Shown here: piece by piece, positions 358 through 56,276 of the stretch
How the letters are laid out: each line of letters opens with the position of its first letter
Numbering within the stretch: the stretch's first letter is position 1
Assembly (NCBI GenBank): GCA_903828645.1
Contig: CAIKNA010000035.1
Span: 13,789-77,788, forward strand
Source: an uncultured Bacteroidales bacterium
GTDB lineage: Bacteria; Bacteroidota; Bacteroidia; Bacteroidales; FEN-979
DNA: 64,000 nucleotides
Reading direction: 5' to 3'
Program-made: the position numbers and the translations under genes
Notes under the pieces: model-generated
What the model was told of the DNA's origin: nothing
What the model saw: the letters and a program-made list of their open reading frames with translations, nothing else
Database searches by the model: none

Positions 358-3321
358 TCAGTCACGCCTGCTGTCGGCTGTCCTGTGTTGGTGATCCGAC
401 CCATCGATCTTTACGAGCGAATTAAACATTGACTGGTCAGTTGTAAGCCGTTCTGCATTGCCGTAAACGCAAAGGGCATTCTGATTCAGCACATCGGCCA
501 CCAGGGGCAGGAATCCCCGGATATCTTCCGGAGTGGTTGAAAGTACCGCATCACGGTCGAATTGGACTTCCTCCACCGTTCGTTGCGACAGGAACATGCT
601 TACCGCCTGGTCCCCTTTTTGCGACGGTGTGAGTGGCGAGTCCATCTCCGAGATCGTCCCGATGATATACCGGGCCATGCTTTGCCGGTCGGCGGCGAAA
701 GTGGAGAGGTATCCGGTTGTGTTGCCGAAATTCTCCAGGGTACTGCCAAGGTTCGGATCGCGGTAGGAGCTGAAGGTGAAGTTGCCGCCAGGCGAGATGC
801 TGCTGAATCCTCCGTAAGCCCCTCCGATCACACGGATACGGGTTTGCAGCCAGTCGGTGGAAAGGATCTGGTTCAGAACCCTCATCCTGGCATCCCATTC
901 ATAGCCCAGGTTTTTATAGTTAAAGCCTTTCACGACGTATTGCACGTTTGATGACGCCATCAACCCCTCATTCTGCGTATCGAAACTGAAACTCCAGGTA
1001 TGGTTCTCAACGCTTCCGTGAGGCAGCTGACGGGCAAGAAAATTCAGCCCGACGGAAAAAACCGCCTGGTCTTTTTTGGCACCGGTGAGGGAGACGACCA
1101 TGTTGTTCCAGGTAAAAAGCAGCGAAGCAACTTTTTCCAGGTTGGAAATGATGGTGGTTGAATTTACGTCGAAATTCTTTAGCAGGTCGGTCACAAACCA
1201 ATAATAGGAAAGCCCGCCGGTGAGTTCATTTAACATTCCCTGGTTGCTGAAATAGGAGGAGAGGCGCCGGCTGGCAACATGATACCCGTTGCCTTTCACC
1301 TGTGCATCGACCTGCGACTGGTGGCGCGAAAGCACCGTTTTCAGGCGTTCCGGATCGTTGAAGATGGTTTGGGTAAGGATCTCTTCAGCAAGTTCAAAAA
1401 GTTTTCCGGTTTTGTAATTCATCGCTTTTGAGCTGACAACAAACTTGGGTAACAACTGCTTGTCGTCCGATTTGACCATATAGGTGCGAAGGGAGGTAAA
1501 AAACCCGCCGGTATGGATGTTCAGCGTCTTATTGAGGTCACCGAAAGAGTAATTTTTTGTATTCATGCTGCCGATCACATTCGTGAGGAGTGAAATGTAG
1601 GGAATCAACTCCTGCGGCACCCTGTGCAGGTCGAATAAGAGGTTCACATAAACCACGTCGTTGGTAAACTGTTCATGTTCCAGGACCGGAATCCCGGCAA
1701 TATTCTGCTGGGTTACCTCGTAAAAAGTAGCTATTGGATCAATGTCGCTGATTTCGAGCATGGGGATTGTTGCGAGGGCCTCTGCCGGGTCTTCGCGCTG
1801 CTGGTAGGCGATGAGTTCGGCCGTTTCGCGGATCAGCGTTTCGATGGCGGCGTCATCAAGCGATGCTTTATGGACTTCAAGTTCGGCTTCGACAGCGGCA
1901 TTTCGTTCTTTTTCCAGCCCTGTGGAAGGTTCCAGGGTCAGTATTAGGGTGTGCGGATTGTCCAGGAAATATTCAAGGATGATTTTTTCCAGGTAATCGG
2001 TTGTCAGCGATTTTTTTACCTCGGCCAGCGTGGCGTCAAATTCCAGCCCGGTGAGCGGGTCGCCGGCAAAGAACCATCCCGGGAGGGCCATGTTCAGGTA
2101 AGTGAGGCCTTTGTGGGCGTCATCGCCTTCCCTCAGGCGGAATTCAATGCGGTTTATCACTCCTTCGATCTCCTCCTTGTTCAGCCCTTCAGATGCTGCT
2201 TTCCTCAGGGTTTCCGTCACAATGGCCAGGAATTTTCCTTTGTCTCCCGGGTTGGCGTTGATGGCGGCGATTTGCACGGCGTGCTGTTTGAAATTGGAGG
2301 AAGAACCCGATACATCCTGCCCGATGCCAGCCTCAAGCAGCGCCTTGCGGACAGGGGCTGATTCCTGGTTCACCAGCACTTCGCAAAGGATGTCGAGGGC
2401 CAGTGTAAGTGCCAGGTTGGTGTTGTGTCCGGCAACGAAATTGTAGGTCAGGAAGGTCTGGTTCAAAGTTTCCGATTCCTCCATCACCGGGTAATAGGAA
2501 GTAACCTCCTTCATGGCCGCAAATGACGGCTGGTCATCGATGGTGATCTGGTTCCCGGTCCTTGTGAAATTGGCGAGATAAGCCGAATCAATGAAAGCCA
2601 GCTCCTTTTCAAGATCGGCGTTGCCGTACAAAAAGATATAACTGTTTTCGGGATGGTAATATTTTTGGTGAAATGCCATGAACGCTTCCCGTGTCAGGGT
2701 CGGAATAGCGGCCGGGGTTCCGCCCGATTCAAAGCCATAGGCGTTGTCGGGGAAAAGGTGTCTGAATACCTGGTACCAGAGTTCGCGCTGGGGGTTTGAG
2801 AATGAACCCTTCATCTCATTGTAAACCACCCCGGTGTAAGCCAGGGGCTCATCCCCGGAGGTGAGCTCGTAATGCCATCCCTCCTGTTTGAGAATGCGGG
2901 GATCGTCATAGATCAGCGGGTTGAAAACGGCGTCGAGGTATACGTGCATGAGGTTGAAATAATCCTTGTCGTTCATGCTGGCCACAGGGTACATGGTGTA
3001 ATCCTTGGAGGTAAAAGCATTTAGAAAGGTGCTCAGCGATCCTTTGAGGAGCATATCGAACGGGCTTTTAACCGGGAAGCTCTTTGAACCGTTGAGAACG
3101 GAATGTTCCATGATGTGCGGTGCGCCGTTATCCGATTCGGGAAAGGTTTTAAAACCGATGCTGAACGTCTTATTCGTGTCGTCGGAAATGATCTTCAGCA
3201 GGCTGGCGCCGCTTTTTACATGTTCGAAATGGAGGCAGTCGGCATTCAGTTCCCGCACAAAGCGACGTTCGGCAAGGCGGAAACCGTGATACATATTGTT
3301 GGCAATATATGTTGTGGCCAT
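358..3321 (-). CDS. M16C (PreP/falcilysin-like) zinc metallopeptidase, 987 aa
   Basis: Inverted zinc motif HIMEH (GAPHIMEHSVLNGS) near the N-terminus. The ~1000 aa single-chain four-domain size is typical of M16C. ATG start at 3321. Confidence 0.85.
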   Translation of the reverse strand: MATTYIANNMYHGFRLAERRFVRELNADCLHFEHVKSGASLLKIISDDTNKTFSIGFKTFPESDNGAPHIMEHSVLNGSKSFPVKSPFDMLLKGSLSTFLNAFTSKDYTMYPVASMNDKDYFNLMHVYLDAVFNPLIYDDPRILKQEGWHYELTSGDEPLAYTGVVYNEMKGSFSNPQRELWYQVFRHLFPDNAYGFESGGTPAAIPTLTREAFMAFHQKYYHPENSYIFLYGNADLEKELAFIDSAYLANFTRTGNQITIDDQPSFAAMKEVTSYYPVMEESETLNQTFLTYNFVAGHNTNLALTLALDILCEVLVNQESAPVRKALLEAGIGQDVSGSSSNFKQHAVQIAAINANPGDKGKFLAIVTETLRKAASEGLNKEEIEGVINRIEFRLREGDDAHKGLTYLNMALPGWFFAGDPLTGLEFDATLAEVKKSLTTDYLEKIILEYFLDNPHTLILTLEPSTGLEKERNAAVEAELEVHKASLDDAAIETLIRETAELIAYQQREDPAEALATIPMLEISDIDPIATFYEVTQQNIAGIPVLEHEQFTNDVVYVNLLFDLHRVPQELIPYISLLTNVIGSMNTKNYSFGDLNKTLNIHTGGFFTSLRTYMVKSDDKQLLPKFVVSSKAMNYKTGKLFELAEEILTQTIFNDPERLKTVLSRHQSQVDAQVKGNGYHVASRRLSSYFSNQGMLNELTGGLSYYWFVTDLLKNFDVNSTTIISNLEKVASLLFTWNNMVVSLTGAKKDQAVFSVGLNFLARQLPHGSVENHTWSFSFDTQNEGLMASSNVQYVVKGFNYKNLGYEWDARMRVLNQILSTDWLQTRIRVIGGAYGGFSSISPGGNFTFSSYRDPNLGSTLENFGNTTGYLSTFAADRQSMARYIIGTISEMDSPLTPSQKGDQAVSMFLSQRTVEEVQFDRDAVLSTTPEDIRGFLPLVADVLNQNALCVYGNAERLTTDQSMFNSLVKIDGSDHQHRTADSRRD

Positions 3322-3466: not shown

Positions 3467-4312
3467 ATGCGGACCTTTCTGTTTTTTTTCCTGATGATAC
3501 CGGTGATTCTGCGGGCCCAGCTCATCGTGCCGCTGACTGCCGAAAGTTTCCCGGATGCCACCATTGGCGCTCCAACCATATACGACAACGCATCAGTGAT
3601 GGAATATAACGAGGATGCGGCTGTTTTTATCGAATCAGGGTTCCAATCCCTCATGGTCCAGGAGATCGTATGGGATAAAGTAACCATCAAGGTTGAAGTA
3701 TACCAGATGGCAACCCCTGCAGCTGCATTCGGTATCAATTCCATCTCTCTTCTGAAATGCCTGCAGCGCGACACCCTCACCCCGTTCGACTGCAACGGCA
3801 TTTACCAGTACCAGGCGGCTTACGGGAATTTATACATTTCTGTAAGCAATGAATCAGGATCTGCAGCAGCTCGTACCCATTACCTCCCAGTTGCAAATGC
3901 CATCATGCAGAAGAACCCGCAACAGGTTTTCAAACTGCCGGTTCCGTTCACCCAGCCGCTGATGAATAAAGGAAAGAAAAACCTGGTTTTTGTCCAGGGC
4001 CCGGTCGGACTTCAATACATCCTCTTTCCATGGCAGGATCTTTTTACAGGAATTGATTTCGGGATGTTTGCCATTGTGCTTGCGAATACCCAGTCAGACA
4101 TCTACTTTGCCCGTATCCAGTTTGCGGCACCCGATGGCATGATGAGGTTTCTCCGGCTGGCAGGATTGATGCAGGGAGATGTGCCGGTACCCAATACCAA
4201 CACAAACGATGGAATTTACCGGGAGTATCAGCAGGTGGATTACCAGACCATCTATTTTCTCCAAAGCCAGGAGCCCTGGCCGATCAGTGCGGTGATATCC
4301 GCCGATAAATAA
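3467..4312 (+). CDS. hypothetical secreted protein, 281 aa
   Basis: Signal-peptide-like N-terminus MRTFLFFFLMIPVILRAQ. No family recognised. Confidence 0.6.
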   Translation: MRTFLFFFLMIPVILRAQLIVPLTAESFPDATIGAPTIYDNASVMEYNEDAAVFIESGFQSLMVQEIVWDKVTIKVEVYQMATPAAAFGINSISLLKCLQRDTLTPFDCNGIYQYQAAYGNLYISVSNESGSAAARTHYLPVANAIMQKNPQQVFKLPVPFTQPLMNKGKKNLVFVQGPVGLQYILFPWQDLFTGIDFGMFAIVLANTQSDIYFARIQFAAPDGMMRFLRLAGLMQGDVPVPNTNTNDGIYREYQQVDYQTIYFLQSQEPWPISAVISADK

Positions 4313-4320
4313 CCTGCCCG

Positions 4321-4920
4321 CTATTTTATCAGCGATAACCCCTCCAAAGCCGAGGTATCCTTTGGCTTGTTCAGCAGTACCTTGTTGAACATCACCTGCG
4401 CCTCGCGCAACTTTCCTAGTTTGTAAAATGTCCAGGCATAAAGGAGCATGCTGTCGTAATCGAATGGGTAAAGGTTGATGACCTTTTCAAGGTGTTTTTC
4501 GGCTTTGGCGTAATCTTTCCTTCCGTAATAGATCGAACCCAGGCGGTAATTGGCGGTTGTGTTTTGCGGATCAATGACGAGAATCTCATTGTATTCGGAT
4601 ACAACCTGGTCCCAGTTGCCAAGCGCTGAAGCAGGGTTTGCAAACCCCAGTTTGGCTTCAATCGAGTAGGGTTTCAGTTTGATGGCTTTCTGGTAGTAGG
4701 CAGCCGATTCGGTGAACGCCCCGTTCAGATAGGTCACCCATCCAAGGCGCAGGTTTATTTCATACGAATCCTCCTGGTAAATGGTCTTCATGGTACCTAT
4801 GGCGTCTGCGAAATCCCCCCGCCCTTCATATTCCTGGCTTTTGGCGAATGCCTCCCGAAGCGTCGTATAATTTGTCTGGCTGAACAGGCTCAGCGAAGTA
4901 AAGAAAAGCAATGAAGCCAT
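4321..4920 (-). CDS. TPR-repeat protein with signal peptide (about 199 aa)
   Basis: Start moved to MASLLFFTSLSLFSQ (ATG at 4920). The ORF-track N-terminus (KCKMQNAKCKMQ) is only the translated heptamer array. TPR-like AxxYYxKAIxLxP repeats. Confidence 0.7.
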   Translation of the reverse strand: MASLLFFTSLSLFSQTNYTTLREAFAKSQEYEGRGDFADAIGTMKTIYQEDSYEINLRLGWVTYLNGAFTESAAYYQKAIKLKPYSIEAKLGFANPASALGNWDQVVSEYNEILVIDPQNTTANYRLGSIYYGRKDYAKAEKHLEKVINLYPFDYDSMLLYAWTFYKLGKLREAQVMFNKVLLNKPKDTSALEGLSLIK

Positions 4921-4945
4921 GATAAATTGCAGCTGCAAAAAACCT

Positions 4946-5008
4946 TGCATTTTACATTTTGCACTTTGCATTTTGCACTTTGCATTTTGCATTTTGCATT
5001 TTGCATTT
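4946..5008. repeat. tandem heptamer array (TGCATTT)x9, slightly degenerate
   Basis: tgcattt tacattt tgcactt tgcattt tgcactt tgcattt x4. Fills the spacer between the OMP stop (5013) and the TPR gene start (4920). Confidence 0.95.
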
Positions 5009-5012
5009 TGTT

Positions 5013-6512
5013 TTAAAATTTCCATGTGATTCCTCCGATTAGCGTGTTTGTATTATAAGGGTTGTTCGTGGTTTGCTTGACTTCATTGACCAGGTGTGTA
5101 TCCGGATCCTGCGTTTTGATGTAATAGATTTGCTGACTCTCCCTTCGGGAATACTGGTAAATGATTGAAAACGAGAGGTGTTTGCCCGCCTGGAATACCA
5201 GCGAGGCACCACCGCGGTAATCGATCATATCGCTGTTGTTATAAACGATGGAACCATTGAAAATATTTGCATTGGTATAGTCGCCGTAATAAAAATTCGC
5301 TTCGCCCCACATCCAGGGAGTGATTTTTGCCCCGATGACCTGGCTCAGCAGGAGTCGCTGTACCGTGCCCTGGAAAAAACCGGTCGCCGTGGTGGTCTCG
5401 TATAAATTGAGGTTGCCCAGGGGGTACCAGGTTAAGGAGGCCCCGGCCTGTTTTTGCGTTTTATTGTTGAGATTCGACCAGCTCCCGTGAACTCCGATGT
5501 TGAACATACCAAGATCTTTGGTAACCTGCAACGCAGCAACGTAGTTGTTAAAGGATGTATCAGACCGTGAATAGGAATAAACAACCCGGTCGAAAGGAAA
5601 GGTTACGTAATTGCTGTCGTAAGCAGTAAAATAGCCTGTATCGGTAACCCGTTGCAGCTTATAGGCACTGCTGACGACCGGATAACTGACATGTATAAAA
5701 TGGAAAGCGGGCATCACCTTTAGTCCCCAGGGAAGGAGCACCGTGGCGCCGATATGTCCTTCAAACTGGGTTACATGATAGGTAAAAGAGGTATCATGGA
5801 TGACTTTTGGAAAAGTGTAGTGATAAAATTTGCCCCATGATGAGTCTGCAATGGTTTGAAGCTGGTCTTCGATAGAGCAATACTGGATATATTTCGTTTT
5901 TGCGAAGTCAAGGTAATTGAAAGCCGCCGACAGGCTGACCCTTTTTGCAATCCTTAGCTTCACACTGAGGTTACTGTATGAACTGTTGCCATAAAGATCC
6001 TGTTCCCCATAGAGGCTGTCGCTGCCCATCAGGGTGGCGAGGTTAGCAGGCGCCCTGTCGCTGCTAACCATGTAGCCTCCTTCGGCGTGGATCTCCTCCA
6101 GCCCCCCGGGCTCATCCCCGGGCTCATCCCCGGGCTTAAGCCCGGGGTTTAAGGGGCCAGTCACCCGTGCCTCTTCACTCCTGTTCGTATAGAGGTAGGC
6201 GAGATAAAGATAGTTGGCCACGATCGGATCTGACGAATTGAACTGCCTGGCTTTTTTCAGATGGGTGGCTGCCGGGAAATAGTCTGATTTTTTAAAATAG
6301 GAGATCCCCATCCGCACCCTCAGGTAGTAGTAATCGATGTCTTGCCTCAATGCCTGCTTGCCGACCACGATCACACTGTCCCATTTTTCCTCCTGGAAAC
6401 AACGGTACGTCAGCCGGTCAATGGTTGCGAAATCGAGTCTGGTTGCGGCCACGGACGATGTGCCGCAAAGCGACGCAAGGAGGATCAGGAAAAAGCCAAG
6501 GTTTTTTTTCAT
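5013..6512 (-). CDS. outer-membrane protein: N-terminal TPR-like region plus C-terminal beta-barrel, 499 aa
   Basis: Signal peptide MKKNLGFFLILLASLCG. About 110 aa of helical TPR-like sequence, then a PGDEPGDEPGG linker. Alternating aromatic/hydrophilic beta-strand pattern ending in the terminal ...GITWKF (C-terminal Phe, the OMP signature). Confidence 0.65.
   Translation of the reverse strand: MKKNLGFFLILLASLCGTSSVAATRLDFATIDRLTYRCFQEEKWDSVIVVGKQALRQDIDYYYLRVRMGISYFKKSDYFPAATHLKKARQFNSSDPIVANYLYLAYLYTNRSEEARVTGPLNPGLKPGDEPGDEPGGLEEIHAEGGYMVSSDRAPANLATLMGSDSLYGEQDLYGNSSYSNLSVKLRIAKRVSLSAAFNYLDFAKTKYIQYCSIEDQLQTIADSSWGKFYHYTFPKVIHDTSFTYHVTQFEGHIGATVLLPWGLKVMPAFHFIHVSYPVVSSAYKLQRVTDTGYFTAYDSNYVTFPFDRVVYSYSRSDTSFNNYVAALQVTKDLGMFNIGVHGSWSNLNNKTQKQAGASLTWYPLGNLNLYETTTATGFFQGTVQRLLLSQVIGAKITPWMWGEANFYYGDYTNANIFNGSIVYNNSDMIDYRGGASLVFQAGKHLSFSIIYQYSRRESQQIYYIKTQDPDTHLVNEVKQTTNNPYNTNTLIGGITWKF
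6104..6150. repeat. 12-nt tandem repeat (ccccgggctcat) ending in a 20-bp perfect palindrome, inside the OMP CDS
   Basis: Units at 6104-6115, 6116-6127 and 6128-6139. ccccgggctt/aagcccgggg (6128-6147) is self-complementary. The region encodes PGLKPGDEPGDEPGG. Confidence 0.9.
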
Positions 6513-8719
6513 CGGCCGCTAACCAGTCTGACTTCAGTTTCTTTTTCATTTTCGCGGATGACGAACCGCTCCAGTCCATGGATTCCGATAAAAAGGTCGC
6601 ACTCCATTTTTTTTATTTCATGACTGCCGATCCTGGCAGAAACTTCCGACTTCAGGCGGATATTGGTCTGCATGAGTGCATCATCCATCCCCAGGTACCG
6701 GAGATTGTATTCCGGCCTGGTAAAAAGAATGAAAGGCGCCACAAAATCCTGCACCAAACCAACCAGCCGGTTGTTGAAAGTGTTTACGGGGTATTGGTCT
6801 TTCACCAGGAGATTGCGGTAATAACCCATCATTACCTTGTAGGCACCCAGGAAAAATTTAAAGAGCAGCGAGGATCGGTCACCTTCAAAAAAAGTGAAGT
6901 AATGAATGTCGCCATCGTTGCGAAACCATGCCCTTGATTTTGTCTTCCCGCAATATAAACAAGTCTGGTTCATTGCATCGACCTGAACCTCCCAGTATAC
7001 CTGGTACTCCTTGCCATCCGCGGGTGATACGCTGAATTTGAATTCCTGGCCCGGGATGAAGTGAAAAGCTTTTTCAAGGGATGCATTTTTACTGATGTTT
7101 GAAACCACCACATTGTTCTCGGGTGTTTCATACGATTTCAACTCGAAAACACCGCTTTTATGCCGGATGTAATGGCTGATGGGATAGTCGAGGGTGCGCG
7201 AGCCGATATAGGGTGTGCCCTGGAGTTGAAAATGGATGTGAGGTACCGGTGAACGCCCTGAGTTTCCGCAGGCTGCAATCACCTGTCCTTTTTTTACGGA
7301 ATCGCCTACGGCAACCTTGAAACTCCCTTTTTTCAGGTGTGACAACTTGGAATAGAGCAGGTCGGCATGATGCAGGATGATGGTGTTTCCCCAGTTGTGG
7401 TCGAGGTCGACATTGCCGATTTCATTCTCATCCACATCATCCACGATCTCCTGTACGGTTCCATCCGCAGGGGCGATCACAGGCTTGTTGTATGCATAAT
7501 AATCATCACGGGTCTCCCCGTCGCCGGTATAGCTGAGCCCCTCATCGTCCATTATCTCGAAATCCCAGGCATGCCGCCAGTCGCCCTGGTGGGTGAATTT
7601 GCCATTGTGGCTCTGCGAGATCTTCCATTCGCCCCAGAATGGCAGGACAAAAGGGAAAAAGAGCGCTTTACCGAATCGCGCCTTATAATTCACATGGGAG
7701 TAAAGGTTTTTCTCAGGAGAAAATTGCTGGTACATTACCAGTTCGGGTTTGTCAAAAAAGCGTTCGCGGAATTTCAGGGCATACAGGAAAATCAGCACCA
7801 CCATGTTGAATGGCAGCGAATAGACCGACAACTGAAAGATGGTGAAAATTGCCTGGGTGCTGGTCAGAATGATCGAAATCAGCGGCGTAAGCAGGATGAC
7901 CCACAGAAAGGACCACCACGACGGGATGATGAAAAAACCGCCTATGGCGATAGCGGTGAGAATGAAATTGAACCCGATGAAACTATAACTGAGCTCATGG
8001 ATATCGGCCCCGATGAAATGGTAGTAGGCATAGGCCGAAAAGAAACCCACCAGTGAAAGGATGAAGGAGATGCGCGAATAGATAAGCAATCCAAGTGCGA
8101 TCAGGATTCCCGCAAACAAATGGTATTGAAAGAAGATGGCTCCCAGCGATGTAAAATAGAGCCGCACCGATTCAGGGATCCCAAGGTTGGTAAGCCAGTT
8201 GTACGAATCTACCATGCGCTGCCCGCCCAGCATGAACATTTCGTTGGTCATGTAGATGCCCCGTTCGCTCACATGAAGCGCGGTAAACTGCCTCGTGGCA
8301 AGGCTAACCAGCCAGGTTCCGAGTAGAAAGGATAGGCTCAGAAAGGGCAATCCGTATTTGCCGATAACTCCTTCAAGAAAAAGGGTCAGAAAAAGCGTAA
8401 GCAGGGACGCAAATCCGAGGACGATGAAAAATTCGGTCCCGGGCTGGTAATAAACACCCAGCCCCAGTCCGACCAGCAAGCTGTTGAACCCGTAATACCC
8501 TTTTTTAATGTTGTCGCGGTTGAACCCGATACTGTATGCCAGGATGTTGGTAACCATCACCGCGATCACCCCGCTCAAACCAGCCCAGAAGTCAAAAAAC
8601 GACACCACGATCAGGACCAGCGAAAACACCCTGCTGTTCGAAAAAAAGATCTGGGTATAGCTGTTCAGGACGCTCGAAAGGAACGAAGGAAAGACGGTTT
8701 TCAGGCTTTTATAAGTCAA
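6509..8719 (-). CDS. fusion membrane protein: urea-transporter-like (UT) polytopic domain + M23 (LytM-type) metallopeptidase domain + about 230 aa unknown C-terminal domain
   Basis: N-terminus LNSYTQIFFSN followed by about 10 hydrophobic helices resembles the UT family. M23 motifs HxxxD (HAWDFEIMDD) and HxH (PHIHFQL). TTG start at 8719. Its stop overlaps the OMP start (ATGA at 6509-6512). Confidence 0.7.
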   Translation of the reverse strand: MTYKSLKTVFPSFLSSVLNSYTQIFFSNSRVFSLVLIVVSFFDFWAGLSGVIAVMVTNILAYSIGFNRDNIKKGYYGFNSLLVGLGLGVYYQPGTEFFIVLGFASLLTLFLTLFLEGVIGKYGLPFLSLSFLLGTWLVSLATRQFTALHVSERGIYMTNEMFMLGGQRMVDSYNWLTNLGIPESVRLYFTSLGAIFFQYHLFAGILIALGLLIYSRISFILSLVGFFSAYAYYHFIGADIHELSYSFIGFNFILTAIAIGGFFIIPSWWSFLWVILLTPLISIILTSTQAIFTIFQLSVYSLPFNMVVLIFLYALKFRERFFDKPELVMYQQFSPEKNLYSHVNYKARFGKALFFPFVLPFWGEWKISQSHNGKFTHQGDWRHAWDFEIMDDEGLSYTGDGETRDDYYAYNKPVIAPADGTVQEIVDDVDENEIGNVDLDHNWGNTIILHHADLLYSKLSHLKKGSFKVAVGDSVKKGQVIAACGNSGRSPVPHIHFQLQGTPYIGSRTLDYPISHYIRHKSGVFELKSYETPENNVVVSNISKNASLEKAFHFIPGQEFKFSVSPADGKEYQVYWEVQVDAMNQTCLYCGKTKSRAWFRNDGDIHYFTFFEGDRSSLLFKFFLGAYKVMMGYYRNLLVKDQYPVNTFNNRLVGLVQDFVAPFILFTRPEYNLRYLGMDDALMQTNIRLKSEVSARIGSHEIKKMECDLFIGIHGLERFVIRENEKETEVRLVSGR

Positions 8720-8723
8720 TATT

Positions 8724-8748
8724 ATTTACGATTTACGATTTACGATTT
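8724..8748. repeat. tandem heptamer array (ATTTACG)x3.6
   Basis: atttacg atttacg atttacg attt. Fills the 27-nt spacer between the decarboxylase stop and the UT/M23 start. Confidence 0.95.
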
Positions 8749-10105
8749 ATTTGTTAAAGTTTGCAAGGTGTTCAGGCACCTTCTCCATGCCGGTGATGTT
8801 GTCGAGGGTTTCACGGAGGCGGATCACATGAGGTTTTTCGTCCATATCGATGAGAACAACATGGGGCCGCAGGGAGATGAACTGCATCCACTGGGTCATA
8901 TTGTAAGCGCCGACATTTTGAATAACCACCTGGTCGCCCCGGTTAAGCAGCGGCAGACTGGCGCTTTCGCGGATCACGTCGATGTTCATGCACAAGGGCC
9001 CATAAACGCAGGTGTCTTCCGAATATTGTGTAAACGACTGGGCTGGAGTGATTTTGTGATCATACCAGAAAGAGGTGAACAGGATATTGACACCGATGTC
9101 GAGAATGGTGTTACGGCGGCCGGTGCTGGAGCGTTTGTTTGAAATAACAGATCCGAGGAGGTACCCGGCTTCGTCGATCAGGGCGCGGCCTGTTTCAAGA
9201 ATGAGTAATGGAAGGTTGTCCTGTTTGAAGTTGCTGTTGAGAAGCGCTGAGGATATGGCTTCGGCAAAATCATCGAAGGTTGGGTTGGTATCGCTGCCCG
9301 GCAGGTAAGAGCCCTTCAGCGTGTTCCTGGAGGCGAATCCTCCGCCCAGGTCGATGTATTTGATTTCGTGTTTGAATTTCTGTTCCACGGAAAGTGCTAG
9401 TTCAGCCAGTTTTGACGCGGCAATGCCATAGGCAAAAGGCGAAAGCATGAAAGTGCCGATGTGGCAATGCAGCCCTACCAGTTCCATCCTGCCCGAATGC
9501 ATGATCTTGTTGATCGCGTCCCACGCCTGGCCGTTCTCATAGTTGAAGCCGAAACGGTCCCACATGGGATATACACCTGTATCCATGTTTACCCTGATGG
9601 CGACCCGCGGACGTGATTTGCTCTTGTCGGCCAGTTCGGAGATGGTATAAAGTTCGTCGAGGTGGTCGATGTGGATGAGGGAGTCGTTTTGAATGGCTTT
9701 GCAAAGATCTTCCTCGCTCTTTTCAGGCCCGTTGAAGATGATCTTTTTACCGTCAACGCCGAGGCTGATGGCCTTGTCGTATTCGAAGCCGGAAACCACC
9801 TCGGCCCAGGAACCCTCCTGGTGGAAAATGCTGCAGATGGCGTTGAGGTAGTTGGTTTTGTATGACCAGGCAAACTGAACCTTCGGATAGCGCGTTTCAA
9901 ATGCTTTCCTGGCTTTCCTGATGGTGCTGCGAACGGTCTTCTCGGAAATCACGAAAAGGGGAGAGCCGTATTCTTTGATCAGTGATTTAACGGAGACCCC
10001 GTCAATGTGCGTCATCGGCGCATATTCCGTTCTTGTCCCGAATTTATTCGGCATACCGGTTTCAAGTTTCTTAATCACCGGGCGTTCATATCTTATTTTG
10101 CTCAT
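8747..10105 (-). CDS. fold-type-III PLP-dependent decarboxylase (Orn/DAP/Arg decarboxylase family 2), 452 aa
   Basis: PLP-lysine context WSYKTNY, glycine loop DLGGGFA and C-terminal catalytic-Cys context GPLCMNID. Size and layout match DAP decarboxylase-like enzymes. Confidence 0.8.
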   Translation of the reverse strand: MSKIRYERPVIKKLETGMPNKFGTRTEYAPMTHIDGVSVKSLIKEYGSPLFVISEKTVRSTIRKARKAFETRYPKVQFAWSYKTNYLNAICSIFHQEGSWAEVVSGFEYDKAISLGVDGKKIIFNGPEKSEEDLCKAIQNDSLIHIDHLDELYTISELADKSKSRPRVAIRVNMDTGVYPMWDRFGFNYENGQAWDAINKIMHSGRMELVGLHCHIGTFMLSPFAYGIAASKLAELALSVEQKFKHEIKYIDLGGGFASRNTLKGSYLPGSDTNPTFDDFAEAISSALLNSNFKQDNLPLLILETGRALIDEAGYLLGSVISNKRSSTGRRNTILDIGVNILFTSFWYDHKITPAQSFTQYSEDTCVYGPLCMNIDVIRESASLPLLNRGDQVVIQNVGAYNMTQWMQFISLRPHVVLIDMDEKPHVIRLRETLDNITGMEKVPEHLANFNK

Positions 10106-10156
10106 ATATCGTAATTCTAAAATTCAGTTAAAATCCAATTAACAAAACAAATTTTC

Positions 10157-10195
10157 AATCGTAAATCGTAAATCGTAAATCGTAAATCGTAAATC
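10157..10195. repeat. tandem heptamer array (AATCGTA)x5.5, the reverse complement of the ATTTACG arrays
   Basis: aatcgta x5 + aatc, lying between the ATP-grasp stop (10197) and the decarboxylase start (10105). Confidence 0.95.
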
Positions 10196-10196
10196 C

Positions 10197-11243
10197 CTAC
10201 AGCTCCCCATAAATGCTGATCTGTTCGAACTCTTCCCTGTCAACGATCATATCCCAGGCGTAACGGATGAACATCTTACCCACATCATAGGTGGCAAACG
10301 GAGTTACCTTTTCACCCAAGGCCAGGTTGACCAGTGCTTCGGGTATATTCTGGCCCACTCCGACAGCAAGGTAGATCCAGGCCGGCAGCCGGGGATTTAT
10401 TTCCAGCAAATAAAGTTCACCGTCTTTGTTTTTCATCAGTTCAAGTTCGAAACCACCGCGCCATTTGGTGTTTTTCAGAAACTTCCGTGTCATGTCCAGC
10501 ATTTTTTCATCGGAAATGGATATGCCTCCCCACGCCTTGCCTTTGTCGGTGATGTACTGTTTGCGCATCGGCACCGCGGCGATGGTGTTTCCCTTTCCGT
10601 CGCCCAGCCCGGTCACGTTGAATTCGGTGCCATGGATGAACTCCTGGATGATGATGGGAAGCCCCCATTTGGCGCTGATCTTGTTGAAGTAACTCTTTAC
10701 CTGCTCAATGCTGTACGCGATGGAGGCGTCGTAGAACTTTCCCTTGACGATCATCGGAAAAGAAAATTCCGACGGAAGGCTGTGAACCGTATTGAGATCA
10801 TAGATCACCTTGCTCTTGGGAACACTGATGTTGTATTTCCTTCCGAAATCGTTGAGGTTCACTTTGTGCCGCTCCTCGAACTGGTGCAGGGTGGGCAGGA
10901 ACATGTGAATGCCCATGGCCTTGAGTTTTGGCTCCAGTTTGATAAACGGGTAAAGCTCCGCATCGAAGTTTGGAATGATCACATCGAGTTTCTCCTTCTC
11001 GTGGATATATTCCAGCCGTGCAAGAAGTGTGTCGATACCTGCAGCAGGATATGGGATCGAATAGGTCCGGTCCACGAGGTCGTGCATGTAGATGCCCGGC
11101 TCGAGCGATTCGTAGGAGAGCCCGGTAATGTTTACATCGAACGAGGAGGCCTCCCTCAGCGCCCTGATCACCGATACCCCTGGACCCGGGGAGTCGATGG
11201 CATTCAGCCCGGTTACTGCAATGTTAAGCTTTCGTTTCTTCAT
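10197..11243 (-). CDS. ATP-grasp family ligase (about 348 aa)
   Basis: Start moved to MKKRKLNIAVTG (ATG at 11243). ATP-grasp pattern: PMIVKGKF (Lys loop), IIQEFIHGTEF and ELYLLEINPRLPAW (Mg/ATP-binding E-x-N). Confidence 0.75.
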   Translation of the reverse strand: MKKRKLNIAVTGLNAIDSPGPGVSVIRALREASSFDVNITGLSYESLEPGIYMHDLVDRTYSIPYPAAGIDTLLARLEYIHEKEKLDVIIPNFDAELYPFIKLEPKLKAMGIHMFLPTLHQFEERHKVNLNDFGRKYNISVPKSKVIYDLNTVHSLPSEFSFPMIVKGKFYDASIAYSIEQVKSYFNKISAKWGLPIIIQEFIHGTEFNVTGLGDGKGNTIAAVPMRKQYITDKGKAWGGISISDEKMLDMTRKFLKNTKWRGGFELELMKNKDGELYLLEINPRLPAWIYLAVGVGQNIPEALVNLALGEKVTPFATYDVGKMFIRYAWDMIVDREEFEQISIYGEL

Positions 11244-11484
11244 GGCTTTCGAGGAGGTTGTGATGTTCAAGGATTCCGATGAAGTCGTAATAATCTTTTT
11301 CAAAGGTTGCTTGGTCGGTTGTATATTTATTCAGGATGATCCTGCCGATCTGTTCCGGGTCCTTCTCTTCCCGGATGAGATTGAGGATCTCGATTCCGAT
11401 GGGATTCACCGAAAAGGATTCACCTGTTACCGGGTTGAAAAGCAGCCCGGCCTCGCTGACAGCAACATTTTTTCGCAGTTTCAT
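11224..11484 (-). CDS. PqqD-family small protein (peptide chaperone / RRE-like), 86 aa
   Basis: The pattern ...GLLFNPVTGESFSVNPIGIEILNLIREEKDPEQIGRIILNKY... is the PqqD winged-helix pattern. The 3' end overlaps the ATP-grasp start by 20 nt. Confidence 0.65.
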   Translation of the reverse strand: MKLRKNVAVSEAGLLFNPVTGESFSVNPIGIEILNLIREEKDPEQIGRIILNKYTTDQATFEKDYYDFIGILEHHNLLESHEETKA

Positions 11485-11506
11485 GGGTTTTGTTTTAATG
11501 ATGCTG

Positions 11507-11514
11507 CAATATTA
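11507..11514 (-). promoter_or_regulatory. possible -7 box (TAATATTG, one mismatch) for the PqqD operon
   Basis: 22 nt upstream of the ATG at 11484. Imperfect match to TAnnTTTG. Confidence 0.3.
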
Positions 11515-11573
11515 AGCACACCCCCCGGCCGGGATGTTACGAAATTATAAAAAGGATGTATAAAATTTTAAGA

Positions 11574-12194
11574 TCACCGTCTGTCCTGTAAAAATAATCC
11601 GCCGGGACCAAGTTTATCAATGCCTGAACGGCTGTTGGCCGGGGTCACCCGGTATTCGGTCACCGATATCCCGGTTATCGATTTGAACTGCGTGGAGAGA
11701 TACTGCACGCTGCTGTAACCCATCATGTAAGCGATCTCGCTGAGGGTGAGTTCCCCGTATTCGATGAGTTCCCTCACCTTTTCAATTTTATGCAGGATGG
11801 TGAATTTCTCGAGGGTGGTACCTTCGTGCTTCGAAAAGAGTGAGGAAATATAAGGGTACGACATGCCGAACCGCTCAACCAGGTAATCTGAATTGCGCAC
11901 CATGGCGTTGTAGGTTGAATGATGGACCAGTTCGATCACAGCTTGCTTAATCTGTTCAACCAGCATTTTTTCCTTATCCCTGAGGATCTCAAACCCATAC
12001 CCCTCCAGCATCGTTTCGATCTTTTTCCAGGTAATCTTCTTCGGGTCGATGGAGAGTTGGAGCGTTCCCAGCCTGATGTCGTGGATTTCGACACCGTCCA
12101 CGGAAAGCTCTTTGCGAAGCAAATGGATGCAGCAACTACAGGTCATGTTCTTCACATGGAAGGTACGGGCAGGATGTGCTGTTTTTTTCTTCAT
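11574..12194 (-). CDS. AraC-family transcriptional regulator with N-terminal heavy-metal-associated (HMA)-like domain, 206 aa
   Basis: VKNMTCSCCIHLL resembles the GMTCxxC metal-binding loop. The C-terminal SEIAYMMGYSSVQYLSTQFKSITGISVTEYR is the AraC HTH. Confidence 0.75.
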   Translation of the reverse strand: MKKKTAHPARTFHVKNMTCSCCIHLLRKELSVDGVEIHDIRLGTLQLSIDPKKITWKKIETMLEGYGFEILRDKEKMLVEQIKQAVIELVHHSTYNAMVRNSDYLVERFGMSYPYISSLFSKHEGTTLEKFTILHKIEKVRELIEYGELTLSEIAYMMGYSSVQYLSTQFKSITGISVTEYRVTPANSRSGIDKLGPGGLFLQDRR

Positions 12195-12203
12195 AAGGAT
12201 GGC

Positions 12204-13463
12204 TCACACAAGTTCATAGTGGTAAGAGTCCTGGCGGATAAAGATAAACAATAACACCGTGAAAGCCCATAACGAGGACCCACCATAGCTCACATAGGGC
12301 AGCGGGATGCCGATCACCGGTACAAGCCCGAGGGTCATCCCTATATTGATGGCAAAATGAAAAAAGAGGATCGATGCCACGCCATAGCCATATAGCCTGC
12401 TGAACCGCGAACGCTGTCGCTCGGCCATGAGGATGAGGCGAATGAAAAGACCCATGTAAAGTATCACCAATACCGCCGAGCCCAGGAATCCCCATTCTTC
12501 GCCCACGGTGCAAAAAATAAAATCGGTGCTCTGCTCCGGCACAAAATTGTATTTTGTCTGTGTCCCCTGTAAAAATCCTTTACCGAAAAATTTCCCTGAC
12601 CCGATGGCGATAAGCGACTGGTTGACATTGTACCCCGCCCCCCTGAGGTCAACGTCTTGTCCGAGCAATACATGGATCCGGTTGCGCTGATGCGGTTCAA
12701 GGATGTGATTTACGCTGTAATCCACTGAAAAGACAAACCCCAACGCACCCATGAATGCGGCAATGATGAGCAGGTTGGTACGCAGTTTCCGGTTGCTGAA
12801 AAAATAGAAACCACCTGCTGCCATAAGCAGCACCGCAACCAGCACAACTTTTGGCAGTACCAGTGCAAGTATGCCCAGGACGGGCAGAACGATGAACGCC
12901 AGCGGGACAAACCCGGTAAGACCGGCACGGTAAAGCACGATGACCAGTGTAAGGAAGACGATGGCAGAACCGGTGTCGTGCTGCAGGAATACGACCAGCG
13001 CTGGTACAAGAATAATTGCGGAGGCGATTACCAGGCTGCGGAATTTGGCAAGGCTTACATCCAGTGTTCCCAGGTACTTTGCCAGGGCAAGCACGGTAGC
13101 CATCTTGGCAAATTCGGCAGGCTGAATGCCGAAGCCGCCAATGGCGAACCAGCCCTTTGAGCCTGCCACTTCGCGCCCCGAAAAGATCACGATCACCAAC
13201 ATGAATAGAAAAAAACCATAAATGAACCAGGCGAACTGCGAGAAAAACTTGGGGTCGATGATCAGGATTCCCATGGCCAACAGGATGGCCGCAAGGATGA
13301 AGATCATCTGTTTCCCGTATTTCTGCGACAGGTCGGCAATCTGGTTGTGGGTGTCGTTATACACCGCGGCATAGATGTTCAGCCAGCCGATGAAGACCAG
13401 CGTGAGGTAGAGCCCCACCACCACCCAGTCAATCCGGTAAAATATTCCCTTGTCCTCTCTCAC
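12204..13463 (-). CDS. rodA: rod shape-determining protein RodA (SEDS/FtsW-RodA-SpoVE family)
   Basis: About 10 TM helices and the conserved NQSLIAIGSGKFFGKG...PEQSTDFIF motif. Sits immediately downstream of PBP2. GTG start. Confidence 0.85.
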   Translation of the reverse strand: MREDKGIFYRIDWVVVGLYLTLVFIGWLNIYAAVYNDTHNQIADLSQKYGKQMIFILAAILLAMGILIIDPKFFSQFAWFIYGFFLFMLVIVIFSGREVAGSKGWFAIGGFGIQPAEFAKMATVLALAKYLGTLDVSLAKFRSLVIASAIILVPALVVFLQHDTGSAIVFLTLVIVLYRAGLTGFVPLAFIVLPVLGILALVLPKVVLVAVLLMAAGGFYFFSNRKLRTNLLIIAAFMGALGFVFSVDYSVNHILEPHQRNRIHVLLGQDVDLRGAGYNVNQSLIAIGSGKFFGKGFLQGTQTKYNFVPEQSTDFIFCTVGEEWGFLGSAVLVILYMGLFIRLILMAERQRSRFSRLYGYGVASILFFHFAINIGMTLGLVPVIGIPLPYVSYGGSSLWAFTVLLFIFIRQDSYHYELV

Positions 13464-15881: not shown

Positions 15882-16850
15882 GTGGGAAATATTTTTGAAA
15901 TATCCTCCGAAGCTGAGTTCACAGCCTGCGCACTGGAATTGTTCCGTTATCAATACAAGCAGAACGCAGTGTATCATGCATTCGTGGAGGCGCGCAAAGT
16001 GGTTGTTGAAAACATCCTACGGGTGGATGATATCCCTTTTCTCCCCATCGAATTTTTCAAAACCCATGATGTGGTTTGCGGGAATGTCCCTCCCCAGGCC
16101 ATCTTCCGCAGCAGCGGGACAACAGGCATGGTCCGCAGCCGCCACCTTGTTACCGATCTGACCGTGTATCGCCGCTCATTCATCAAGGGCTTTGAACATT
16201 GTTACGGGGACCCGGAGGATGTCCAGTTCCTGGCCCTCACGCCCACACCCGAACAGGCTCCCGATTCATCGCTCGTTTACATGATCCAGAAGCTGATGGA
16301 TGTTAGCAGCAGCCCCGAAAATGGCTTTTTCCTGGCCAGCCATTCGGGATTGAGCGCCCGGTTGCGTCAGCGGCGTGCACGGAACAAAAAGGTTGTGCTG
16401 ATAGGCCTTACCTATGCGCTCGTCGATTTTGCTGCCAGTTATCCCGGGGATTACACCCCGCTCATCGTCATCGAAACCGGCGGAATGAAAGGGCATCGCA
16501 CCGAAATCACCCGCGAAGAGCTTCATTCACTTCTTTGCCCTGCTTTCGGCGTAGAGCAGATCCATTCGGAATATGGCATGACCGAATTGTTGTCACAAGC
16601 CTGGTCGCAGGGAGAGGGACGTTTCAATACCCCCCCGTGGATGAAGGTGCTGATCAGGGATGCCAATGATCCGCTGGGATATGTGGGCACCGGGGAGACC
16701 GGGGGCATCAACATCATCGACCTGGCCAACCAGGATTCATGCAGTTTCATCGCCACCCAGGACCTTGGCCGCATGCATTATGACGGACAATTTGAAGTCC
16801 TTGGCCGGTTTGAAGCTTCCGATGCAAGAGGGTGCAGCCTTCTTATCTGA
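15882..16850 (+). CDS. LuxE/PaaK-like acyl-adenylate-forming enzyme (acyl-protein synthetase family), 322 aa
   Basis: FRSSGTTG adenylation motif and a YGMTE motif. Size and layout are typical of Bacteroidota LuxE-like proteins. GTG start. Confidence 0.6.
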   Translation: MGNIFEISSEAEFTACALELFRYQYKQNAVYHAFVEARKVVVENILRVDDIPFLPIEFFKTHDVVCGNVPPQAIFRSSGTTGMVRSRHLVTDLTVYRRSFIKGFEHCYGDPEDVQFLALTPTPEQAPDSSLVYMIQKLMDVSSSPENGFFLASHSGLSARLRQRRARNKKVVLIGLTYALVDFAASYPGDYTPLIVIETGGMKGHRTEITREELHSLLCPAFGVEQIHSEYGMTELLSQAWSQGEGRFNTPPWMKVLIRDANDPLGYVGTGETGGINIIDLANQDSCSFIATQDLGRMHYDGQFEVLGRFEASDARGCSLLI

Positions 16851-16888
16851 TTTACGATTTACGATTTACGATTTACGATTTACGATTT
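16850..16888. repeat. tandem heptamer array (ATTTACG)x5.5
   Basis: Starts on the last base of the TGA stop (16848-16850): tgATTTACGATTTACG... Confidence 0.95.
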
Positions 16889-31351: not shown

Positions 31352-31372
31352 AAATCGTAAATCGTAAATCGT
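31352..31372. repeat. tandem heptamer array (AAATCGT)x3, forming the whole 21-nt intergenic spacer
   Basis: On the minus strand the sequence reads TAA-ACGATTTACGATTTACGATTT-ATG, from the cyclophilin stop to the pheS start. Confidence 0.95.
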
Positions 31373-56180: not shown

Positions 56181-56221
56181 TTTACGATTTACGATTTACG
56201 ATTTACGATTTACGATTTACG
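56180..56221. repeat. tandem heptamer array (ATTTACG)x6
   Basis: Starts on the last base of the sufB TAA (56178-80). A degenerate TTTGAC/TTTGAT heptamer-like tract follows at 56234-56267. Confidence 0.95.
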
Positions 56222-56276
56222 ATTTTTGCGCTGATTTGACTTTTGACATTCATATTTGATTTTTGAATTTTTTTCT

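Follow-up and report, generated by a model that had tools for sequence, protein, structure and literature searches.

We analyzed a 64,000-nucleotide stretch of DNA from an uncultured Bacteroidales bacterium (contig CAIKNA010000035.1; hereafter the window), which carries a six-gene operon at positions 4321-11484. The operon encodes a PqqD-like protein, an ATP-grasp ligase, a pyridoxal 5'-phosphate (PLP)-dependent decarboxylase, an inner-membrane fusion of a urea-transporter (UT) channel with an M23 metallopeptidase (UT-M23), an outer-membrane protein (OMP) and a periplasmic tetratricopeptide repeat (TPR) protein. We found that these six genes are one co-inherited unit, the arrangement of which is far above chance. 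We tentatively propose, as a possible rather than a probable course of events, that the PqqD-like protein docks a conserved N-terminal arm of the decarboxylase, that the ligase and the FigC-like decarboxylase make an amine-terminated amide, that the M23 domain cleaves this compound at the UT channel, and that the TPR protein and the OMP carry it outward. A full-text literature search yielded no published description of this gene combination, and none of the curated families (NCBIfam, Pfam, PADLOC) gives these proteins a functional name above cut-off. The statement of an earlier sequence-only reading that the combination could not be matched to any characterized pathway was supported.

Results

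Gene order and conservation

Inspection of the open reading frames (ORFs) of the window verified all six minus-strand genes (Table 1). The genes of the PqqD-like protein and the ATP-grasp ligase overlap by 20 nt (11224-11243), those of UT-M23 and the OMP share an ATGA (6509-6512), and the remaining spacers inside the operon measure 27, 91 and 92 nt. These data agree with the sequence-only reading, which had described six tightly packed genes on the same strand. Profile searches were carried out with Pfam and NCBIfam (June 2026), and PADLOC and the PDB were also used as databases. Here, five of the six proteins received domain calls, and no Pfam or NCBIfam family was found for the OMP.

A species-level scan (one genome per species, family alignment) returned at least 600 matches, and the 80 best loci were analyzed. 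These loci span Bacteroidales, Cytophagales (Cyclobacteriaceae), Flavobacteriales, Chitinophagales, Ignavibacteria, Balneolaceae and Kapaibacteria, and they include a cultured organism, Algoriphagus sp. CAU 1675 (Cyclobacteriaceae). The window belongs to a metagenome-assembled genome of a Bacteroidales that is Prolixibacteraceae/Draconibacterium-like. The identity of the ATP-grasp ligases in the 80 loci is 60-95% (60-67% between phyla). Thousands of close relatives were found in metagenomes, and 234 clusters (50% identity) were matched with E<1e-30.

The gene order was kept in essentially all of the 80 loci that have enough flanking sequence. A PqqD gene was present in 77/77 loci with upstream sequence, and the decarboxylase, UT-M23 and OMP genes occurred together in 49 of the 52 loci with at least 7.3 kb downstream. 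Among the three apparent misses, we inspected L037 and found a short barrel-only OMP of ~300 aa in the same place. In every locus inspected (including L013 and L037) the next gene encodes the TPR protein (200-230 aa), which is sometimes duplicated, and 54 downstream ORFs directly following the OMP gene were TPR homologues (E 1e-46 to 1e-97). The overlap of the PqqD and ATP-grasp genes recurs in 47 of 77 loci and that of the UT-M23 and OMP genes in 56 of 58, which suggests translational coupling. Taken together, these counts support the co-inheritance of all six genes.

Extra genes inside or just upstream of the operon were observed in some relatives. In L007, three or four additional ORFs stand between araC and pqqD (7600-9662), which by eye encode an ECF-sigma-like protein, an anti-sigma-like protein and two proline-rich proteins. 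L046 carries a 266-aa signal-peptide protein between pqqD and the ATP-grasp gene (9043-9843) and a 255-aa protein between the ATP-grasp and decarboxylase genes (11212-11979). Strict adjacency is therefore not essential. Two contigs of one Cyclobacteriaceae metagenome-assembled genome (CTOTU1241; L025 and L027) each carry a copy of the operon, with ATP-grasp ligases 66-67% identical to the window protein, and this finding points either to paralogous operons within a single genome or to a mixed bin.

The decarboxylase and its N-terminal arm

The best PDB match of the decarboxylase was the N-citrylornithine decarboxylase FigC (7kh2; E 5e-64), to which it is ~37% identical in an alignment read by eye. 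LysA (1.8e-40) and BtrK (1.7e-24) were also matched, and in NCBIfam the protein stayed below the cut-offs of FslC (243 vs 500 bits) and LysA (TIGR01048; 218.2 vs 297.9 bits). The enzymes of the FigC clade (FigC, SbnH, AcsE, MccE, BtrK) decarboxylate amino acids that are tethered via their side chain to a larger scaffold, and they are unrelated to polyamine synthesis (PMC7857480). The sequence relationships support an assignment of our enzyme to these decarboxylases of side-chain-tethered amino acids. Its PLP-binding lysine K83 (133/133) and Cys372 are invariant in the family. At the site where FigC has the citrate-contacting residues R387/N388/N389, we found Q405/W406/M407, and Q405 as well as Q408 are invariant even in the most distant systems. 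The distal portion of the substrate is therefore probably without charge and does not differ between family members.

Alignments to FigC and LysA start at residue 33-34, and the preceding N-terminal extension, which is absent from both enzymes, is conserved in every member of this family. In the window this arm reads M-S-K-I-R-Y6-E-R-P9-V-I11-KKLETGMPN-K21-FG. We quantified its conservation in 133 unique sequences from genome and metagenome loci, including systems at ~30% identity. Here, position 6 was aromatic and position 11 aliphatic in all sequences (133/133 each) and P9 was present in 128/133, so that a [YFW]xxPx[ILV]-type motif is found across the family. K21 was present in 132/133 sequences, which makes it as invariant as the catalytic residues K83 and C372, and it follows the aliphatic residue at a spacing of 9 residues in 125 of 130 sequences. 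YxxP is a known motif of engagement by RiPP recognition elements (RREs; RiPP, ribosomally made peptide with post-translational modifications) and lasso leaders are recognized by PqqD-type RREs (PMC12710340, PMC13622209). We infer that the PqqD-like RRE may bind the decarboxylase's own arm.

The PqqD-like protein and the search for a precursor peptide

The PqqD-like protein scored 38.8 bits against PF05402 (cut-off 23.4), which identifies a peptide-binding domain of the PqqD/RRE fold, and weak matches to lasso PqqD chaperones were obtained. Its core is well conserved, and its C-terminal tail varies in length and sequence and is missing in many orthologues. The sequence-only reading had considered the 86-aa protein itself as a carrier by virtue of its acidic tail. 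Because the tail is not conserved, such a LysW-like role was ruled out.

Clustering of small ORFs in the 80 loci revealed no conserved ORF of 18-95 aa within ~2.5 kb of the operon, and all recurring small ORFs in its vicinity were shadow ORFs of flanking genes. In the window, the gaps that flank the operon measure 89 nt and 8 nt. The earlier remark that no precursor ORF adjoins the PqqD gene thus holds for small ORFs, but a leader-like YxxPx[IL] motif does exist on the N-terminal extension of the decarboxylase.

Among the family representatives we detected a PqqD+ATP-grasp fusion protein (P0229), an ATP-grasp+decarboxylase fusion protein (P0153) and tandem double ATP-grasps of ~715 aa. Because of the two fusion proteins, PqqD, ATP-grasp and decarboxylase can be regarded as one cytoplasmic module.

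The ATP-grasp ligase

In profile searches, the nearest solved structures were 2pn1, the large subunit of carbamoyl-phosphate synthase (CPS), biotin carboxylases and PurD, and there was a weak match to PylC. The nearest NCBIfam models are named 'carbamoyl phosphate synthase-like' (PRK12767) and were matched far below cut-off. Judged by these similarities, the ligase is a member of the CPS/biotin-carboxylase-like branch and not of the RimK/LysX, Ddl or graspetide type.

The UT-M23 protein and its sister systems

The UT domain scored 198.9 bits against PF03253 and covers profile positions 2-291 of 292, which indicates a full-length UT fold. It retains the motifs LPxxSxxF and SLPFN and stayed below the cut-off of the NCBIfam urea transporter model (TIGR03441; 118.2 vs 274.6 bits). 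A Foldseek search with the UT-M23 model returned dvUT and UT-B as well as LytM/M23 structures, with a TM-score of ~0.7 to LytM-type domains. In the M23 domain (PF01551, 58.3 bits), the zinc-binding and catalytic residues H377, D386, H461, H494 and H496 are invariant in 90 sequences. The ~230 residues that follow the M23 Pfam match are without assignment, and the C-terminal domain within them (~540-736) is well modelled. This domain had no Pfam match and no PDB sequence match at E up to 10, and Foldseek with the whole model gave UT and M23 only.

Between the UT and M23 domains, the probably cytoplasmic linker (residues 318-348) carries an invariant SPE(K)NLY motif (P335 in 87/90 and E336 in 90/90 sequences), which is flanked by R318 (88/90) and R348 (87/90). 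A second YxxP-like site in this linker, FDKPEL, was rejected for lack of conservation, since most sequences have Leu instead of P325.

A metagenome scan seeded with the double ATP-grasps uncovered sister systems of two architectures. The first has the order PqqD-ATP-grasp-decarboxylase-UT/M23-TPR, and its OMP is either absent or short (~300 aa). The second was found in 17 loci and has the order (GNAT)-large periplasmic TPR-PqqD-[ATP-grasp x2]-decarboxylase-UT/SIR2, where GNAT is an acetyltransferase gene; by Pfam, the UT+SIR2 fusion was called in three of these loci and a 92-aa PqqD in two. The SIR2 part of the fusion proteins contains the motif GAGxS...GIPDY. We found no description of a UT-SIR2 architecture.

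SIR2 enzymes are NAD-dependent N-epsilon-acyl-lysine deacylases and hence cytoplasmic, and the amides hydrolyzed by M23 enzymes include Gly-Gly and D-Ala-(epsilon)DAP (DAP, diaminopimelate). Since SIR2 needs NAD+ and occupies the position of M23 in the sister systems, the domain following the UT helices would be located in the cytoplasm. A basic cluster, KFRERFFDK, directly follows the last transmembrane helix of the 10-helix UT domain. On these grounds, the M23 domain is probably a cytoplasmic and active enzyme and not a periplasmic wall hydrolase. Its exchangeability for an acyl-lysine deacylase suggests amide hydrolysis beside a channel as the common denominator of the two architectures.

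Outer-membrane and periplasmic proteins

In the AlphaFold2 model of the OMP (confidence score pLDDT 82), a signal peptide is followed by three TPR-like helical hairpins (28-118), and a disordered linker leads to a beta-barrel (138-498). Sequence profiles matched TPR proteins at residues 68-116 only. When we searched the model with Foldseek, generic barrels were the only matches, with FadL as best hit (TM-score 0.51) and BcsC at rank 30. The position of the OMP gene is conserved and its sequence is very divergent; in L037 and in the L147 group a short protein of ~300 aa stands in its place, which apparently lacks the TPR part, and neither form has a Pfam match. With FadL as best match, BcsC at such a low rank and short forms in existence, a specific kinship to the export porins PgaA, BcsC and AlgE that had been put forward from sequence was not substantiated. 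In the window, the OMP linker is encoded by a perfect 12-nt tandem repeat (x2.8, 6104-6136), which is translated into PGDEPGDEPG and lies exactly between the TPR-like part and the barrel (pLDDT ~40).

The TPR protein has a signal peptide without lipobox and weakly resembles YbgF/CpoB-type proteins. The last three proteins of the operon are thus predicted to be an inner-membrane, an outer-membrane and a periplasmic protein, and the OMP and the TPR protein would fit a route from the periplasm to the outer membrane.

Table 1. Features of the operon and its surroundings. Positions refer to the window unless a locus is named.
Feature	Position	Strand	Basis or remark
PqqD-like protein, 86 aa	11224..11484	-	Pfam PF05402 E 1.2e-9
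ATP-grasp ligase, 348 aa, ATG at 11243	10197..11243	-	ATPgrasp_Ter E 1.1e-11, ATP-grasp_3
PLP-dependent alanine-racemase-fold decarboxylase, 452 aa, FigC-like	8747..10105	-	Orn/DAP/Arg decarboxylase N E 1e-29, C E 4e-13
Decarboxylase arm motif, codons 6-21, Y6-E-R-P9-V-I11-(9 residues)-K21	10043..10090	-	candidate ligand of the PqqD-like RRE
UT-M23 inner-membrane fusion protein, 736 aa, TTG start	6509..8719	-	UT E 1.3e-58, Peptidase_M23 E 9e-16
UT channel domain, residues 15-315 of UT-M23	7775-8677	-	Pfam 199 bits
M23 metallopeptidase domain, ~residues 355-530 of UT-M23	7130-7657	-	Pfam match residues 409-500, 58 bits
Novel beta-rich C-terminal domain, ~residues 540-736 of UT-M23	6512-7102	-	without Pfam or PDB sequence match
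Outer-membrane protein (OMP), 499 aa	5013..6512	-	AlphaFold2 model; without Pfam or NCBIfam family
Periplasmic TPR protein, 199 aa from MASLLFF	4321..4920	-	TPR families; signal peptide
AraC-family regulator with HMA-like N-domain, 89 nt upstream	11574..12194	-	HTH_18 E 1e-14, HMA E 8.5e-5
Upstream intergenic gap, 89 nt	11485..11573	-	one-mismatch -7 box; GC-rich hairpin at 11518-11537
Heptamer array TTGCATT x9.4, OMP-TPR spacer	4945..5010	.	Tandem Repeats Finder
Heptamer array ATTTACG x3.7, decarboxylase-UT/M23 spacer	8724..8749	.	Tandem Repeats Finder
Heptamer array AATCGTA x5.6, ATP-grasp-decarboxylase spacer; unit of the 8724 array reversed	10157..10195	.	Tandem Repeats Finder
UT-SIR2 fusion proteins	L103 13552-15153; L089 13541-15196; L085 11801-13621		
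GNAT genes, examples	L045 173-730; L103 5370-5882		

Spacer repeats, transcription and neighboring genes

The spacers inside the operon are filled by 7-mer arrays. These had been noticed in the sequence-only reading and were recovered by Tandem Repeats Finder, but they are not specific for the operon. An ATTTACG-type unit was also found at 16849-16888, 31347-31372 and 56180-56225 of the window, and in total this unit occurs in both orientations at five sites. Because of this recurrence, the arrays can be regarded as a genome-wide intergenic feature. In this lineage, short tandem repeats with units of 7-9 nt pack the spacers between genes. At the homologous spacers, close relatives have arrays (L003 12427-12528 and 16397-16431; L007 11102-11151, 12533-12585 and 16294-16361) with unrelated units and periods (8-mer x12.8, 9-mer x5.6). 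The arrays look like fast-evolving, position-specific repeats. One of the arrays affects gene calling. The longest ORF of the TPR gene starts with an ATG at 5025 and its N-terminus, QNAKCKM QNAKCKM QSAKCKM, is the translated heptamer array. The conserved start is MASLLFF at 4920; the OMP-TPR spacer measures 92 nt only with this start, and automatic annotation would probably over-extend the gene and create a false overlap with the OMP gene.

A weak -7 box had been proposed for the gap at 11485-11573. We located a site with one mismatch, TAATTTCG, which was read by eye and is not scan output, but no exact TAnnTTTG box was present on the coding strand from 5126 to 14176. Scans for sigma-70-type promoters and for terminators performed at chance level (the hairpin at 11518-11537 was listed in such a scan), and Rfam detected no RNA family across the window. 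Transcription may therefore start from the weak site in the 89-nt gap or result from read-through from the upstream mrdA-rodA-araC genes.

The AraC-HMA regulator stands directly upstream of the operon in 18 genome loci and is probably its local regulator. The CxxC motif of this protein (MTCSCC in the window) is kept in near relatives only and is replaced by SxSC-like sequences in other orders, so that metal control through this regulator is doubtful; outside the near relatives the HMA-like domain may have lost metal binding. Other lineages carry sigma-54 response regulators, LytTR regulators or a TetR-PqqD fusion upstream. The latter is a single ORF with TetR_N and a C-terminal PqqD directly upstream of the ATP-grasp gene (L123 9156-9983, also L127 and L141). 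Such a transcription factor carrying an RRE hints at RRE occupancy being sensed for regulation.

In 9 genome loci and 8 double-ATP-grasp loci, the gene directly upstream, on the same strand, encodes a RimJ/RimL-type GNAT (Acetyltransf_3; examples in Table 1). The C-terminal domain of MccE has an acetyltransferase (GNAT) role, and by analogy the GNAT could acetylate the product amine for self-protection.

In the window, RodA and PBP2 (mrdA) are encoded upstream on the same strand (12204-15294). Downstream we found a DUF6599 protein (3467-4312) and a 987-aa protein (358-3321), which looks M16/insulinase-like by eye. The PBP2/RodA neighborhood is limited to the closest clade (~9/80 loci), the downstream neighbors are likewise kept in the closest clade only, and the four flanking genes are probably without functional link to the operon. 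None of the six operon proteins matched an anti-phage defence model of PADLOC.

Discussion

In the course of events that we favor, the PqqD-like protein, translationally coupled to the ATP-grasp ligase, would hold the YxxPx[I/L] arm in its peptide-binding groove, and this docking would make ligase and decarboxylase act as one complex. The ATP-grasp ligase would consume ATP to form an amide bond through which an alpha-amino-acid unit is attached via its side chain, and the FigC-like decarboxylase would then strip the alpha-carboxyl of this unit to leave a terminal primary amine. The same ligate-then-decarboxylate logic operates in the pathways of rhizoferrin (FigA/FigC), butirosin (BtrJ/BtrK) and microcin C (MccD/MccE), and more generally the proposed chemistry resembles known ligate-then-decarboxylate and RRE-guided pathways. 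The putative product would proceed to the UT-type channel, where the cytoplasmic M23 domain would cut an amide and thereby release or unmask the product on entry. The periplasmic TPR protein and the TPR/beta-barrel OMP would finally move it across the periplasm and the outer membrane. A self-contained, envelope-spanning system for an amide-linked product had already been suggested in the sequence-only reading. The co-inheritance of the genes, the cytoplasmic trio indicated by the fusion proteins, the FigC-like decarboxylase and the set of inner-membrane, outer-membrane and periplasmic proteins are in line with this suggestion. A role of the M23 domain as periplasmic wall hydrolase is at odds with the basic cluster behind the last transmembrane helix and with the SIR2 swap.

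Several observations weigh against our proposal. Bicarbonate is the substrate activated by CPS and biotin carboxylases, to which the ATP-grasp ligase is nearer than to known amide ligases. The UT pore is narrow, so that passage of anything beyond urea-sized amides is in doubt. Because the UT model is of low quality in its membrane part (pLDDT <50), the topology of UT-M23 is deduced from the positive-inside rule and from the analogy with SIR2. The best fold match of the OMP, FadL, is an uptake channel, and the export direction assumed here would be opposite. Finally, the short YxxPx[IL] hexamer is also met by chance within folded domains of the other operon proteins, and the arm could instead serve within the decarboxylase molecule itself.

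A more radical scheme, which we consider rather unlikely, turns the decarboxylase itself into the missing 'precursor peptide'. Its arm would serve as built-in leader (YxxPxI), that is, as docking tag and covalent workbench in one, and Lys21 would be the priming site, acylated by the ATP-grasp ligase with the side-chain carboxyl of a Glu/Asp-type unit. The tethered unit would be decarboxylated, possibly in repeated cycles, to a thin and side-chain-free oligoamide, which M23 or SIR2 would free into the UT pore and which would thread this pore and leave via the TPR/barrel proteins. This scheme draws on the conservation of K21 (invariant like K83 and C372, 132/133), its fixed distance of 9 residues from YxxPxI, and the amide-cleaving chemistry shared by SIR2 and M23, which are interchangeable here. 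The two ATP-grasp modules of the sister systems would fit priming and elongation, and there is precedent for small molecules being built on ribosomal peptide scaffolds with RRE and YxxP (PMC13622209). However, a stoichiometric scaffold borne by an enzyme is without precedent, the invariant lysine could just contact the ligase or the substrate, and the one ATP-grasp+decarboxylase fusion protein that was examined (P0153) keeps YVRPSI but has Arg at the lysine position. The more conventional alternative of a classical RiPP pathway, in which an unlinked precursor is bound by the PqqD RRE, modified by ligase and decarboxylase, trimmed by M23 as leader peptidase and exported, appears clearly unlikely to us. 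In its favor, an RRE-fold protein accompanies the ATP-grasp universally and is sometimes fused to it; the peptidase-channel fusion recalls peptidase-containing ABC exporters, and MccE is a decarboxylase of the same clade that acts on a peptide conjugate. Yet no conserved small ORF was found within ~2.5 kb in the 80 loci, the flanking gaps of 89 nt and 8 nt in the window are short, and the arm of the decarboxylase is a better candidate ligand of the RRE. The enzymes and the RRE core are also unusually conserved (ATP-grasp 60-67% between phyla), unlike typical RiPP tailoring enzymes.

Three other explanations assign the operon to cell wall, metal or nitrogen metabolism. A role in peptidoglycan turnover, with ATP-grasp, DAP-decarboxylase-like enzyme and M23 modifying or recycling stem peptides, is suggested by M23 being a family of peptidoglycan hydrolases, by LysA-like enzymes acting on DAP, by the weak similarity of the TPR protein to YbgF/CpoB, and by PBP2 and RodA being encoded directly upstream on the same strand in the window and near relatives. 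We regard it as quite improbable, since this neighborhood is confined to ~9/80 loci of the closest clade, the M23 domain has a predicted cytoplasmic location and gives way to SIR2 in the sister systems, the decarboxylase falls below the LysA cut-off and is nearer to FigC, and PqqD and UT are left without a role. Synthesis of a metallophore of the rhizoferrin/staphyloferrin type is very improbable. For such a pathway the ATP-grasp would have to take the place of an NIS (NRPS-independent siderophore) synthetase, next to a FigC-like decarboxylase and under metal-sensing AraC-HMA control, and FigC is indeed the best decarboxylase match, the HMA-like regulator upstream does carry a CxxC motif and export components are present. 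However, the citrate contacts R387 and N389 of FigC correspond to Q405 and M407 in our enzyme, with Q405 invariant; the operon has no NIS synthetase, TonB-dependent receptor or uptake system; and the CxxC motif of the regulator is lost outside near relatives (SxSC), with sigma-54, LytTR and TetR-type regulators in other lineages. Least probable of all is a function in urea or nitrogen handling, in which urea would pass through UT and a ureido compound would be made from bicarbonate or carbamate activated by the CPS-like ATP-grasp. The full-length UT domain (199 bits) with LPxxSxxF and SLPFN kept, the proximity of the ATP-grasp to CPS, urea amidolyase and biotin carboxylases and the uncharged pocket of the decarboxylase would be compatible with it, but UT stays below the NCBIfam cut-off (118 vs 275 bits), the operon lacks urease, allophanate hydrolase, biotin carrier and a glutamine amidotransferase partner, and PqqD, M23/SIR2, TPR protein and OMP are left unexplained.

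When compared with known systems, the operon shares individual steps with several of them. In the rhizoferrin pathway of Francisella (NIS synthetase FigA/FslA and decarboxylase FigC/FslC), a side-chain amide is formed first and the alpha-carboxyl is lost afterwards, as we propose here. In contrast to this pathway, our operon employs an ATP-grasp ligase, and we found no IucA/IucC-type NIS synthetase in the operon or its flanks. Its decarboxylase has Q/W/M in place of the citrate contacts and an extra N-terminal arm (FslC score 243 vs 500 bits), and PqqD, UT-M23, TPR protein and OMP stand in place of an exporter of the major facilitator superfamily. Butirosin synthesis (carrier BtrI, ATP-grasp BtrJ, BtrK, release by BtrG/H) also involves an ATP-grasp and a decarboxylase of the DAP decarboxylase family; the latter acts on tethered glutamate, and a protecting or linking amide is removed afterwards. 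However, the operon has no acyl-carrier protein (no PP-binding domain in the six proteins) and no thioester chemistry; any tether would be an amide on the enzyme's own arm, and release would be catalyzed by the channel-fused M23 or SIR2. In microcin C synthesis (MccD/MccE), an enzyme from the clade of our decarboxylase turns an appended amino-carboxy group on a peptide-borne intermediate into an amine, and the RimL-type GNAT that recurrently adjoins our operon would be a counterpart of the C-terminal domain of MccE. In the pathways of pearlins and fosfazinomycin (FzmZ), a small molecule is built on a scaffold peptide with RRE and YxxP and is then freed by a peptidase (PMC13622209). The operon differs from microcin C and these scaffold pathways in having no separate gene for a scaffold peptide, another ligase chemistry and a dedicated envelope machinery.

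Lasso peptide systems have a stand-alone PqqD-fold protein (B1) that recognizes a YxxPxL leader, and the combination of such a protein with a [Y/F/W]xxPx[I/L] motif is what we observed here (PMC12710340). In our case, however, the motif resides on the N-terminus of a 452-aa enzyme and not on a small precursor, the partner is an ATP-grasp, and domains of the B2 transglutaminase-like protease or of the Asn-synthetase-like cyclase were found in none of the six proteins. The operon does not resemble graspetide systems, which combine an MdnB/MdnC-type macrocyclase with an adjacent precursor; its ATP-grasp is nearest to CPS, biotin carboxylase and PurD and no linked precursor was detected. Nor does it match the LysW/LysX carrier system, as the PqqD tail is variable or absent and the ATP-grasp is not of the RimK/LysX type. 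As in peptidase-containing ABC transporters, export would be coupled to cleavage by a cytoplasmic peptidase joined to the membrane conduit, but the conduit here is a UT-fold channel without ATPase and the peptidase is M23 (or SIR2) and not C39. A TPR-plus-barrel outer component with a periplasmic TPR partner is reminiscent of the PgaA, BcsC and AlgK/AlgE exporters; in contrast to them, the OMP contains no more than three TPR-like hairpins, its barrel is a generic one (best match FadL, BcsC at rank 30), and there is no glycosyltransferase synthase. Finally, the M23 domain has the fold and the zinc-binding and catalytic residues of peptidoglycan hydrolases, but its location would not be extracytoplasmic, as judged from KFRERFFDK and the SIR2 swap.

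At least several hundred species from Bacteroidota, Ignavibacteriota and related groups carry the operon, sister systems occur on metagenome contigs, and its enzymes are conserved at housekeeping level (60-67% between phyla), yet none of its genes carries a curated functional name. It combines three oddities: a recognition element of the RiPP type that probably binds the tail of an enzyme and not a precursor, an M23 peptidase that is apparently cytoplasmic and interchangeable with a sirtuin, and a urea-transporter fold that would serve a biosynthetic pathway as its conduit. If the arm of the decarboxylase should turn out to be the scaffold, this would be categorically new and would extend peptide-scaffolded synthesis of small molecules to an enzyme's own arm. 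Such an enzyme-borne scaffold pathway would involve a new use of the UT fold and would explain both the invariance of K21 and the exchange of M23 for SIR2. In any case, solving the function of this operon would annotate thousands of genes that are currently, and probably wrongly, named 'urea transporter', 'diaminopimelate decarboxylase' and 'carbamoyl-phosphate synthase-like'.

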